DNA from: Escherichia coli
Lineage (GTDB): Bacteria > Pseudomonadota > Gammaproteobacteria > Enterobacterales > Enterobacteriaceae
Assembly (NCBI RefSeq): GCF_016903815.1
Contig: NZ_CP069973.1
Strand: one strand, 5' to 3'
Length of the DNA stretch: 64,000 bases
Position 1 is the stretch's first letter; each line of letters begins with the position of its first letter. Both the position numbers and the translations under genes were made by a program. The notes beneath the pieces are model-generated. The model was not told the DNA's origin. It worked only from the letters and a program-made list of their open reading frames with translations, and made no database searches. Shown piece by piece: positions 35,489-42,351 of this stretch.

Positions 35489-36997
<1,509 letters not shown>

Positions 36998-37067
36998 GGG
37001 ACTTAGCCTGCGGCGGTTTTGTTTGGCTTCAGCAGCGGGTTGCGCTCCCTTAATGTGCCTCGCCATA

Positions 37068-37105
37068 TAAATTGAATGGTGCAGGGGGCGGCCAATCGCC
37101 GCCAC
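37068..37105. repeat. GC-rich perfect inverted repeat (15-bp stem) downstream of putP, first of several hairpins
   Basis: ggtgcagggggcggc-caatc-gccgccaccccctgcacc; more hairpins at about 37216-37252. Confidence 0.6.
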
Positions 37106-37574
37106 CCCCTGCACCCCGGGCTCTGGCGAACAAAATCGCCGCTGCGCGGTACCTTCAGCTTATCCCCTTCGGCTACCGGGTCGGGCGCGAGGTAATGTCC
37201 TGTAAGACGCGCCCTCAGCCCACATCCATGTGGGCTGCCCCGGCCTTCGGGGAACGCTTCAGCGACTTTGACGCCACCAACACCCGAGCTGTTATTATGT
37301 TCCGGGCAAAAAGTTAGATTTGATAATCGCGGATGGACGAAATTGCTTGATACACCCGCTTATCAGTTTTACATGGAAGCTCTGATGCATTGAGTCTGGA
37401 CAGTTTTGTCGGCTGGATAAGGCGTTTACGCGGCATCTGGCAAGAACACATGGCTCGTTGTAAACAATCCCATCTTTGTACCTGGAATAATCGTTTATAT
37501 CCCCTGGCATTACCTCTCTTTGTTTACATTCCAACATCATTTTATAAACATTCCGCTTGTATTTTTCTTTGCCG

Positions 37575-37593
37575 TAATGATAATCGCTATCAC
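37575..37593. promoter_or_regulatory. Fur box upstream of efeU
   Basis: TAATGATAATCGCTATCAC resembles the GATAATGATAATCATTATC Fur consensus, about 60 nt upstream of efeU ATG. Confidence 0.65.
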
Positions 37594-37650
37594 TGCGATT
37601 TACTTTTCTTTGCATAGATTGACTCAGAAAAACGTTTAAGGGTGGGTGGC

Positions 37651-38481
37651 ATGTTTGTTCCATTTCTCATTATGTTGCGCGAAGGACTTGAAGCCGCGCT
37701 GATTGTCAGTTTGATCGCCAGCTATCTTAAGCGTACCCAGCGAGGCCGATGGATTGGTGTGATGTGGATTGGCGTGTTGCTTGCCGCTGCGTTGTGCCTG
37801 GGCTTGGGTATCTTCATTAACGAAACCACCGGCGAATTTCCGCAAAAAGAACAGGAACTGTTTGAAGGTATCGTGGCGGTGATCGCCGTGGTGATCCTTA
37901 CCTGGATGGTTTTCTGGATGCGCAAAGTGTCGCGCAACGTCAAAGTACAACTGGAGCAGGCAGTCGATAGCGCATTGCAGCGTGGAAATCATCATGGCTG
38001 GGCGCTGGTGATGATGGTCTTTTTTGCCGTTGCAAGGGAGGGGCTGGAGTCGGTCTTTTTCCTGCTGGCGGCGTTTCAACAAGATGTCGGGATCTGGCCG
38101 CCGCTGGGTGCAATGCTCGGTCTTGCTACAGCCGTGGTGCTCGGCTTCCTGCTCTACTGGGGCGGTATTCGCCTCAATCTTGGTGCATTTTTTAAATGGA
38201 CCAGCCTGTTTATTCTCTTCGTCGCCGCAGGGCTGGCGGCTGGTGCCATTCGCGCATTTCATGAAGCCGGATTGTGGAACCACTTTCAGGAAATCGCCTT
38301 CGATATGAGTGCGGTGCTCTCAACTCACTCGCTGTTTGGCACGCTGATGGAAGGGATTTTTGGCTATCAGGAAGCGCCAAGTGTCAGCGAAGTCGCCGTC
38401 TGGTTTATTTATCTCATCCCGGCGCTGGTGGCATTTGCTCTGCCACCACGCGCAGGGGCGACAGCGTCTCGCTCTGCGTAG
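37651..38481 (+). CDS. efeU: Ferrous iron permease EfeU (FTR1/OFeT family), intact
   Basis: Uninterrupted 276-aa ORF with two REGLE motifs (MLREGLEAAL, AREGLESVFF). Confidence 0.93.
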   Translation: MFVPFLIMLREGLEAALIVSLIASYLKRTQRGRWIGVMWIGVLLAAALCLGLGIFINETTGEFPQKEQELFEGIVAVIAVVILTWMVFWMRKVSRNVKVQLEQAVDSALQRGNHHGWALVMMVFFAVAREGLESVFFLLAAFQQDVGIWPPLGAMLGLATAVVLGFLLYWGGIRLNLGAFFKWTSLFILFVAAGLAAGAIRAFHEAGLWNHFQEIAFDMSAVLSTHSLFGTLMEGIFGYQEAPSVSEVAVWFIYLIPALVAFALPPRAGATASRSA

Positions 38482-38538
38482 CAAATACGACGCAAACTCT
38501 TGCTTAGTTACAACATACTTTAAAGGGATAGTCTCGTC

Positions 38539-39666
38539 ATGACCATTAACTTCCGCCGTAACGCATTGCAGTTGAGCGTGGCTGCGCTGTTTTCTTCTGC
38601 TTTTATGGCTAACGCCGCTGATGTGCCGCAGGTCAAAGTGACCGTGACGGATAAGCAGTGCGAACCGATGACCATTACGGTTAACGCCGGGAAAACACAG
38701 TTCATTATTCAGAACCACAGCCAGAAGGCGCTGGAGTGGGAGATCCTCAAAGGCGTGATGGTGGTGGAAGAGCGGGAAAATATCGCCCCTGGTTTTAGCC
38801 AGAAAATGACGGCGAATTTACAGCCTGGCGAATACGATATGACCTGCGGTCTGCTGACTAACCCGAAAGGGAAGTTGATCGTCAAAGGTGAGGCAACGGC
38901 GGATGCGGCGCAAAGTGATGCGCTGTTAAGTCTTGGTGGTGCAATTACTGCATATAAAGCGTATGTCATGGCGGAAACCACGCAGCTGGTGACCGACACC
39001 AAAGCCTTTACCGACGCTATTAAAGCAGGCGATATCGAAAAAGCAAAAGCACTGTATGCGCCGACGCGCCAGCACTATGAGCGCATTGAACCGATTGCTG
39101 AACTGTTCTCCGATCTGGATGGTAGCATTGACGCCCGTGAAGATGATTACGAGCAAAAAGCCGCCGATCCAAAATTCACCGGTTTCCACCGTCTGGAAAA
39201 AGCATTGTTTGGCGATAACACCACTAAAGGGATGGATAAGTATGCCGACCAGCTTTATACCGATGTGGTCGATTTGCAAAAACGCATCAGTGAACTGGCT
39301 TTCCCACCTTCAAAAGTGGTCGGCGGTGCAGCCGGACTGATTGAGGAAGTGGCAGCCAGCAAAATCAGCGGTGAAGAAGATCGCTACAGCCACACCGATC
39401 TGTGGGATTTCCAGGCTAACGTTGAAGGCTCGCAGAAAATTGTCGATCTGCTGCGTCCACAACTGCAAAAGGCCAACCCGGAACTGCTGGCAAAAGTCGA
39501 TGCCAATTTCAAAAAGGTCGATACCATTCTGGCGAAATACCGTACTAAAGACGGTTTTGAAACCTACGACAAATTGACCGATGCTGACCGTAATGCGCTG
39601 AAAGGGCCGATTACTGCGCTGGCGGAAGATCTGGCGCAACTTCGCGGTGTGCTGGGGCTGGATTAA
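38539..39666 (+). CDS. efeO: Periplasmic iron uptake protein EfeO (cupredoxin-like plus peptidase M75-like)
   Basis: 375 aa with signal peptide. Confidence 0.95.
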
Positions 39667-39671
39667 ACGTT

Positions 39672-40943
39672 ATGCAGTATGAAGATGAAAACGGCGTGAA
39701 TGAACCGTCACGCCGACGTTTACTGAAAGGGATTGGTGCGCTGGCGCTGGCGGGAAGTTGTCCGGTCGCTCATGCACAAAAAACGCAAAGTGCACCGGGC
39801 ACGCTTTCACCGGATGCACGCAATGAGAAACAGCCGTTTTATGGTGAGCATCAGGCAGGGATCCTGACGCCACAACAGGCCGCAATGATGCTGGTGGCGT
39901 TTGATGTGCTTGCCAGCGATAAAGCCGATCTTGAAAGGTTGTTTCGCTTGTTGACTCAGCGTTTTGCTTTTCTGACTCAGGGCGGAGCGGCACCAGAAAC
40001 GCCAAATCCGCGCCTGCCTCCACTCGATTCCGGCATTCTTGGCGGCTACATTGCGTCCGATAATCTCACCATAACGTTATCGGTGGGCCACTCATTGTTT
40101 GATGAGCGGTTTGGCCTTACACCGCAGATGCCGAAAAAGTTGCAGAAAATGACGCGTTTCCCCAACGACTCGCTGGATGCGGCGTTATGTCATGGTGATG
40201 TGTTGCTACAAATTTGCGCCAACACCCAGGACACGGTGATCCATGCGCTGCGCGATATCATCAAACACACGCCGGATTTGCTCAGCGTGCGCTGGAAGCG
40301 GGAAGGGTTTATTTCCGATCATGCAGCGCGTAGTAAAGGCAAAGAGACGCCGATTAATTTGCTGGGTTTCAAAGACGGCACTGCCAATCCCGATAGCCAG
40401 AATGATAAGTTGATGCAACAAGTGGTGTGGGTGACGGCAGATCAGCAGGAGCCTGCGTGGACAATCGGCGGCAGCTACCAGGCGGTGCGGTTGATTCAGT
40501 TTCGGGTGGAGTTTTGGGACAGAACGCCACTGAAAGAACAGCAGACGATTTTTGGTCGCGACAAACAAACCGGTGCGCCGCTGGGAATGCAGCATGAGCA
40601 TGATGTTCCCGATTACGCCAGCGATCCGGAGGGGAAGGTGATTGCGCTGGACAGCCATATCCGGCTGGCGAATCCCCGCACGCCAGAGAGTGAGTCCAGC
40701 CTGATGCTGCGTCGTGGCTACAGTTATTCGTTGGGCGTCACCAACTCCGGACAACTGGATATGGGGCTACTGTTTGTCTGCTATCAACACGATCTGGAAA
40801 AAGGCTTCCTGACAGTACAAAAAAGGCTCAATGGCGAAGCGCTGGAGGAATACGTTAAACCTATCGGCGGCGGTTATTTTTTTTCGCTGCCGGGAGTGAA
40901 GGACGCGAACGATTATCTCGGAAGCGCGTTATTGCGGGTTTAA
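39672..40943 (+). CDS. efeB: Tat-exported DyP-type peroxidase / deferrochelatase EfeB
   Basis: 423 aa with twin-arginine motif [11 protein letters not shown]. Confidence 0.95.
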
Positions 40944-40950
40944 TGTGTTT

Positions 40951-41095
40951 AGGCGGATAAGGCGTTCGTGCGCAGATGCCTGATGCGACGCTTGCGCGTC
41001 TTATCATGCCTACAATCGGTGCGGGTTTGGTAGGCTGGATCAGGCGTTCACGCCGCATCCGGCGTTCGTGCGCTGATGCCTGATGCGAATCCTGC
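40951..41095. repeat. REP/BIME cluster between efeB and phoH
   Basis: Several copies of GCCTGATGCGACGC / GCCGGATGCGGCGTGAACGCC-type palindromic units in alternating orientation. Confidence 0.75.
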
Positions 41096-41120
41096 TGAAA
41101 GCACACAGCTTTTTTCATCA

Positions 41121-41139
41121 CTGTCATCACTCTGTCATC
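41121..41139 (+). promoter_or_regulatory. Pho box (PhoB binding site) of phoH promoter
   Basis: CTGTCATCACTCTGTCATC: two CTGTCAT direct repeats with 4-bp spacer. Confidence 0.8.
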
Positions 41140-41562
41140 TTTCCAGTAGAAACTAATGTCACTGAAATGGTGTTTTGTAGTTAAATATAAGTGAATATAT
41201 TGTTGCAATGAATGCGAGATCTGTTGTACTTATTAAGTAGCAGCGGAAGTTCCCGGCAGTGATAGTCAGTCACTATGGAGATCGCGGATGGTAACGTCCT
41301 GTTCTGGACAATGTTTTGTTAAGCAAGGCTCCACCACTCGCGGAGATTTCTCCTCCGGTAGCAACTTCGTCACTCTGTATTTTTCTCACTTCCTCTCTTT
41401 ACTCGTGTTACCGACGCCGCAAACGGTGTGCGTAGCCGTTTTTCGGCATTTTATCCAAAAGCAAACTATGGCTTACAAGGAAGCCAACCCTCTGATGTTC
41501 GTGCGCATAATCGCGCTGCCAACGGCGCGTGTGATGAATACAAACAACTCAAGGTGCTCTCC

Positions 41563-42351
41563 ATGGGAAGACAAAAAGCAGTGATCAAAGCTCGTCGCGA
41601 GGCAAAACGTGTGCTGAGACGGGATTCGCGCAGCCATAAGCAGCGTGAAGAAGAATCGGTCACCTCGCTTGTGCAGATGAGCGGCGTAGAAGCCATTGGT
41701 ATGGCCCGCGACAGTCGCGATACCTCGCCCATCCTCGCGCGAAATGAAGCGCAATTGCACTATCTGAAGGCTATTGAGAGTAAGCAGCTGATATTCGCCA
41801 CGGGCGAAGCCGGGTGCGGAAAAACCTGGATCAGCGCAGCAAAAGCGGCAGAGGCCCTGATACATAAGGATGTCGACAGGATTATCGTCACCCGTCCAGT
41901 TCTGCAAGCCGATGAAGATCTTGGCTTCTTACCTGGAGATATCGCAGAAAAGTTTGCTCCCTATTTTCGTCCGGTCTACGACGTGCTGGTCCGGCGCTTA
42001 GGGGCTTCCTTTATGCAGTACTGCCTGCGACCGGAAATAGGGAAGGTGGAAATTGCGCCGTTCGCCTATATGCGTGGACGTACCTTTGAAAATGCAGTCG
42101 TCATTCTTGACGAGGCGCAGAATGTGACTGCCGCGCAAATGAAAATGTTTTTAACCCGCCTCGGGGAGAACGTGACGGTTATCGTCAACGGTGATATCAC
42201 GCAATGCGATTTGCCTCGCGGCGTGCGCTCCGGATTAAGTGACGCGCTGGAACGTTTCGAAGAAGATGAAATGGTCGGGATCGTCCGATTCGGTAAAGAG
42301 GATTGCGTACGTTCGGCACTTTGCCAACGTACGCTACATGCATACAGTTAA
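41563..42351 (+). CDS. phoH: PhoH ATPase core (P-loop NTPase); 5' extension appears out of frame in this sequence
   Basis: 262-aa ORF from ATG 41563 with Walker A GEAGCGKT; frame also open upstream to GTG 41428; separate upstream ORF 41288-41584 in another frame. Confidence 0.85.
   Translation: MGRQKAVIKARREAKRVLRRDSRSHKQREEESVTSLVQMSGVEAIGMARDSRDTSPILARNEAQLHYLKAIESKQLIFATGEAGCGKTWISAAKAAEALIHKDVDRIIVTRPVLQADEDLGFLPGDIAEKFAPYFRPVYDVLVRRLGASFMQYCLRPEIGKVEIAPFAYMRGRTFENAVVILDEAQNVTAAQMKMFLTRLGENVTVIVNGDITQCDLPRGVRSGLSDALERFEEDEMVGIVRFGKEDCVRSALCQRTLHAYS

Follow-up and report, generated by a model that had tools for sequence, protein, structure and literature searches.

In Escherichia coli K-12 the iron permease gene efeU is a frameshifted pseudogene, and the present locus raises the question of whether a copy carried elsewhere in the species is intact and, if so, whether it would provide a functional EfeUOB system for ferrous-iron uptake. 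The stretch analyzed here, referred to as the window, comprises 64,000 nucleotides of E. coli DNA. We consider it very probable that the locus in it represents the ordinary intact chromosomal efeUOB (ycdNOB) operon of E. coli, the function of which was lost in K-12 by a 1-bp deletion. The relevant features, in window coordinates, are the following.

37573–37591, plus strand: Fur-box-like site, CGTAATGATAATCGCTATC, identical at 15 of 19 positions to the consensus GATAATGATAATCATTATC and ending 59 nt upstream of the efeU ATG.
37599–37613, minus strand: candidate CpxR-box-like site, GCAAAGAAAAGTAAA, corresponding to GTAAA-N5-GTAAA with one mismatch.
37638–37642, plus strand: Shine-Dalgarno-like AAGGG, read from the sequence, 8 nt 5' of the efeU ATG.
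37651–38481, plus strand: efeU, encoding a 276-aa inner-membrane iron permease of the FTR1/OFeT family according to its open reading frame and family models.
37678–37692, plus strand: first REGLE motif of EfeU (aa 10–14, in hydrophobic segment 1), from a motif search.
37756–37757, plus strand: GG dinucleotide at gene nucleotides 106–107, in codon 36, one G of which is lost in K-12 according to the alignment with MG1655.
38035–38049, plus strand: second REGLE motif of EfeU (aa 129–133, in hydrophobic segment 4), from the same motif search.
38539–39666, plus strand: efeO, encoding a 375-aa periplasmic protein with cupredoxin-like and M75/imelysin domains (NCBIfam, Pfam).
39672–40943, plus strand: efeB, encoding a 423-aa DyP-type heme peroxidase/deferrochelatase with a twin-arginine signal (TIGR01412, Pfam).

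Re-translation of the efeU frame, which extends over 831 nt from the ATG at 37651 to the TAG at 38481, revealed neither an internal stop nor a disruption of the frame, in agreement with the original prediction of an uninterrupted 276-aa EfeU. An alternative in-frame GTG start at 37642 would lengthen the protein by three residues; the ATG at 37651 is the start chosen by RefSeq in an identical genome. The product scores above the curated cut-offs of the NCBIfam equivalog model for EfeU (NF041756; 331.2 bits against 255) and of TIGR00145 (351.7 bits against 303.8), and matches the Pfam family FTR1 (PF03239) end to end, over residues 1–275, with 300 bits and an E-value of 1.8e-89. A crude Kyte-Doolittle profile (19-aa window) displays hydrophobic segments at approximately residues 1–24, 32–60, 68–94, 146–173, 177–204 and 242–266, with peaks of 1.8–2.5, and a weaker one at residues 119–137 (1.59) that holds the second REGLE, which brings the total to seven. 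Both REGLE motifs that had been predicted for the protein were found. A sequence search of solved structures returned no relative of EfeU. By exact-sequence look-up, the identical protein bears the UniRef name EFEU_ECO57 and has been seen on at least 1000 contigs.

The copy in MG1655 (b4490) is orthologous to that of the window, with 97–98% nucleotide identity at the locus and with efeO and efeB intact in both strains (EfeO differs from its K-12 counterpart at two residues), but it is annotated as an 830-nt pseudogene. The alignment of the two efeU genes contains 14 substitutions and a single gap, which corresponds to the G missing from K-12 at nucleotide 106. As a consequence, the K-12 frame reads ...RWIV and meets a stop at codon 37, with the remainder of the gene continuing in the +2 frame, whereas the window encodes the full 276 residues. 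The K-12 frameshift on which the original prediction had relied is thereby located. A paper that cites Grosse 2006 likewise describes the MG1655 transporter as non-functional through the efeU frameshift. When the missing G is restored, the K-12 gene yields a protein without any difference from the EfeU of the window; all 14 substitutions are therefore synonymous, which indicates purifying selection on the intact gene.

The distribution of the two alleles was determined by a search of 5426 complete E. coli genomes for the efeU region, which was matched in 5417 of them. The intact allele, represented by an 81-mer with the extra G, occurs exactly in 3587 of the 5417, and the K-12 deletion allele, represented by the corresponding 80-mer, in 368. 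About 1460 genomes contain neither exact allele; in these the intact 81-mer is altered by substitution or indel at one or a few places, or is only partially matched. All 40 of the K-12-allele records listed look, by name, like laboratory strains of K-12 type, including MG1655, C600, J53, DH5alpha and NEB 5-alpha. Intact efeU is thus the default state in E. coli, and the broken K-12 copy is the exception. These counts also dispose of the notion that the intact frame is an error of assembly or sequencing within a short homopolymer, with a K-12-type lesion really present in the strain. We give this notion practically no credence: the lesion site is a GG dinucleotide, no support for such an error was found, and the same intact 81-mer recurs in 3587 independent complete genomes, as opposed to a K-12 allele in 368 whose listed members look K-12-type by name. 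The window, at 97.3% identity to K-12 across the locus, is moreover not K-12 DNA. An artefactual origin is excluded by these allele counts.

The same figures qualify the proposal that an intact efeU marks a non-K-12 backbone. The proposal is valid, but the marker is a weak one, since the exact K-12 allele is present in only 368 of 5417 genomes. Across the efeUOB locus the window is approximately 97.3% identical to K-12 at the nucleotide level, and the strain is therefore not K-12. A base-by-base comparison with E. coli strain 7/2 (NZ_CP023820.1; human feces, Sweden), which covered positions 1–50000 of the window, showed 100% identity throughout, and in the PGAP/RefSeq annotation of that strain efeU, efeO and efeB are intact and occupy identical coordinates. 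The identity values (97.3% to K-12 and 100% to strain 7/2) are far stronger non-K-12 markers than efeU itself.

An intact gene may nevertheless contribute little. Deletion of efeOB in the ExPEC strain PCN033 had no effect on virulence, and the physiological contribution of efeUOB may for this reason be small beside that of other iron systems. The studies by Grosse in 2006 and by Cao in 2007 reportedly needed strains devoid of other iron transporters for efeUOB phenotypes to appear. Both observations would fit an operon that is intact and expressed, yet adds nothing measurable to the supply of iron as it is redundant with Feo, siderophore and other systems, a reading that we hold to be possible but rather unlikely. 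It is at odds with a divergence that is purely synonymous (14 nt, with no amino acid change relative to either G-restored K-12 or O157:H7 Sakai) and indicative of purifying selection, and with the presence of the efeU region in 5417 of 5426 complete genomes.

The genes that follow efeU are those expected of a complete operon. As the original prediction stated, efeO and then efeB with its Tat signal lie 3' of efeU; the three genes are adjacent on the plus strand, separated by 57 nt (efeU–efeO) and 5 nt (efeO–efeB), and are flanked by putP upstream and by phoH and pgaDCBA downstream, in the same order as in K-12. EfeO matches the NCBIfam models NF007697 (773 bits) and NF041757 (481 bits), so that all three proteins exceed curated family cut-offs; it consists of the Pfam domains Cupredoxin_1 (PF13473, aa 13–115) and Peptidase_M75 (PF09375, aa 135–368), and carries at residue 217 an HxxE motif with the sequence HRLE. 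EfeB reaches 613.6 bits (cut-off 428) with TIGR01412, a model called 'tat_substr_1' after Tat substrates, and comprises the Pfam domains Dyp_perox_N (PF04261) and Dyp_perox_C (PF20628). Its predicted twin-arginine signal is SRRRLLK at residues 13–19 (nt 39708–39728). The GxxDG-type motif (GFKDG, at residue 232) with the catalytic Asp235 is kept, as are the proximal His329 and the distal Arg347, and the best relatives among solved structures are the E. coli YcdB/EfeB chains 2y4f, 2y4d and 3o72.

The identity of EfeB bears on a different reading of the operon, in which its main role would be the extraction of heme iron by EfeB acting as a deferrochelatase, or the import of iron as Fe3+ once it has been oxidized, in place of a simple permeation of Fe2+. 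Under this reading, the term 'ferrous-iron uptake system' would describe the operon incompletely. NCBIfam names EfeB deferrochelatase/peroxidase, and, according to the literature, the use of heme iron is driven by the staphylococcal homologues. The heme activity in K-12, however, occurs without EfeU and leaves the conservation of an intact EfeU unexplained, and the primary papers, by their titles and summaries, attribute the uptake of Fe2+ to EfeU and EfeUOB. We regard this reading as improbable. Neither a marginal role in iron supply nor a main role in heme or Fe3+ use contradicts the sequence finding.

The region upstream of efeU is consistent with iron-dependent control. A Fur box had been predicted at 37575–37593; a site is indeed present, but its best register is 37573–37591, 2 nt to the left. 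It is the top match to the 19-bp consensus on either strand of the 64-kb window, and sites with at least 15 of 19 matches are expected at 0.12 per 64 kb according to first-order Markov simulations of this sequence. A consensus scan that allowed up to three mismatches found no Fur site in the window, since the one described here has four. The last 88 nt before the efeU ATG, including this site, are identical to K-12, and other authors have found a Fur box 5' of efeU by computation. According to the literature, efeU is regulated by both Fur and CpxR, and the title of Cao 2007, together with its summary in a citing paper, describes efeUOB as acid-induced and CpxAR-regulated. The CpxR-box-like site lies downstream of the Fur box and upstream of the efeU start codon, a position that fits the published CpxAR control; as five sites with one mismatch were observed in the window against 4.2 expected, its frequency does not exceed chance and it is kept as a candidate only. 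A simple promoter and terminator scan detected no consensus sigma-70 promoter in the region 36950–41500, and for this reason no transcription start is proposed.

Farther upstream, the spacer between putP and efeU differs from that of K-12. At approximately 37100–37240 it contains an unannotated 141-bp dispersed repeat inserted relative to K-12, adjoined by a 15-bp GC-rich hairpin (37078–37115); copies of this repeat number six in strain 7/2, with a median of three and a maximum of nine per E. coli genome. In O157:H7 Sakai the distal part of the same spacer is occupied instead by an insertion of approximately 2 kb (ECs_1262), which identifies the spacer as a recurrent insertion site; no functional difference is implied. 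A REP-like palindromic unit is located at 37411–37447, upstream of the efeU promoter region. A regulatory RNA in the spacer was considered and rejected: the sole Rfam match, naRNA4, scores 27 bits, below the gathering score of 59.5, and marks the REP-like unit. The strain-specific make-up of the spacer, with the 141-bp repeat and the REP-like unit upstream of a conserved stretch of about 175 nt, could conceivably alter the expression of efeUOB with respect to K-12 and O157:H7, although we consider this highly improbable. If it were true, read-through from putP or a changed mRNA stability would cause efeUOB to be regulated unlike the textbook case.

Other structural variations were noted along the window. 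At the appA/cspH junction (5938–5946), approximately 9.05 kb of K-12 sequence, comprising the group 4 capsule locus etk-etp-gfcEDCBA and IS1D, are absent. The AppA of the window ends in ...PACALHQDK* (436 aa) as compared to ...PACSL* (432 aa) in K-12, and its gene overlaps the convergent cspH. Among 5414 complete E. coli genomes, 1669 share this junction, which thus represents a common lineage polymorphism. A copy of the IS3-family element IS1397 lies between torD and cbpM (17413–18880), at a site that is empty in K-12, and the ymdF–rutG spacer (24654–24689) is about 140 nt longer in K-12, as judged by the boundary of a BLAST block. Downstream of the operon, PhoH is annotated in K-12 and Sakai as a 354-aa protein whose start ATG corresponds to window position 41288. 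In the window, this long frame is broken in the 5' region of phoH by the loss of 1 nt and by a divergent patch (approximately 41310–41405); the ORF 41288–41584 ends after 98 residues, and the only PhoH possible is the 262-aa form (41563–42351), which is also the PGAP form in strain 7/2. The broken frame suggests that coding constraint does not act on the long N-terminal extension of PhoH.

Taken together with the literature, these features outline a probable mode of action. EfeU is an inner-membrane permease of the Ftr1p/OFeT family with seven predicted helices, the first and the fourth of which each contain a REGLE motif. EfeO would be exported, apparently by Sec, and EfeB, with its heme, would be exported by Tat. 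By homology, periplasmic Fe2+ would be handled by EfeO and EfeB and probably oxidized as in the Fet3p-Ftr1p pair of yeast, and, on the basis of the OFeT family and published work, the iron would then pass through EfeU into the cytoplasm via the REGLE glutamates. Repression by Fe2+-Fur at the box about 60–78 nt upstream of the start is anticipated from the literature, as is induction of efeUOB at low pH through CpxAR. This function was lost in K-12 through the 1-bp deletion in codon 36 of efeU, and would be retained in the strain of the window, as in most E. coli. Fe2+ uptake by EfeU itself we infer from its 100% identity to the EfeU of O157:H7 and from the literature. Sequence evidence alone could not give firmer support to the prediction of a functional EfeUOB, and no feature of the sequence speaks against it.

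That efeU is normally intact in E. coli and broken in K-12 has been known since 2006–2007, the point has been published for O157:H7, Nissle 1917, EAEC 042 and ExPEC PCN033, and the result has little import beyond correct annotation, in that the strain is to be credited with a complete EfeUOB. It does emphasize that K-12 is unsuitable as a reference for the iron-uptake repertoire at the efeU locus. In metabolic or virulence modeling of the strain, aerobic Fe2+ uptake at low pH may be assumed, as a prediction.

The closest counterparts of the operon are the EfeUOB (YcdNOB) systems of O157:H7 and Nissle 1917, which share with it the gene content, the gene order and the position between putP and phoH. 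The literature describes these systems (Grosse 2006, Cao 2007) as functional and that of K-12 as cryptic, and it has already been argued in print for EAEC 042 and ExPEC PCN033 that efeUOB, being intact, probably works. Relative to O157:H7 Sakai, EfeU has no difference in 276 residues, EfeO has one in 375 and EfeB has eight in 423. None of the eight affects Asp235, His329 or Arg347, but on sequence grounds they are counted as a possible caveat on functional equivalence. The similarity extends to the last 175 nt or so upstream of efeU, including the region of the Fur box, in which Sakai and the window are 91% identical. A more distant parallel is provided by the yeast Ftr1p/Fet3p system of the OFeT family, whose permease, like EfeU, belongs to the Pfam FTR1 family and has two RExxE motifs and multiple transmembrane helices. 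The partners of the permease are different, with EfeO (cupredoxin and M75 domains) and EfeB (a DyP heme peroxidase) in E. coli, and a multicopper oxidase in yeast.
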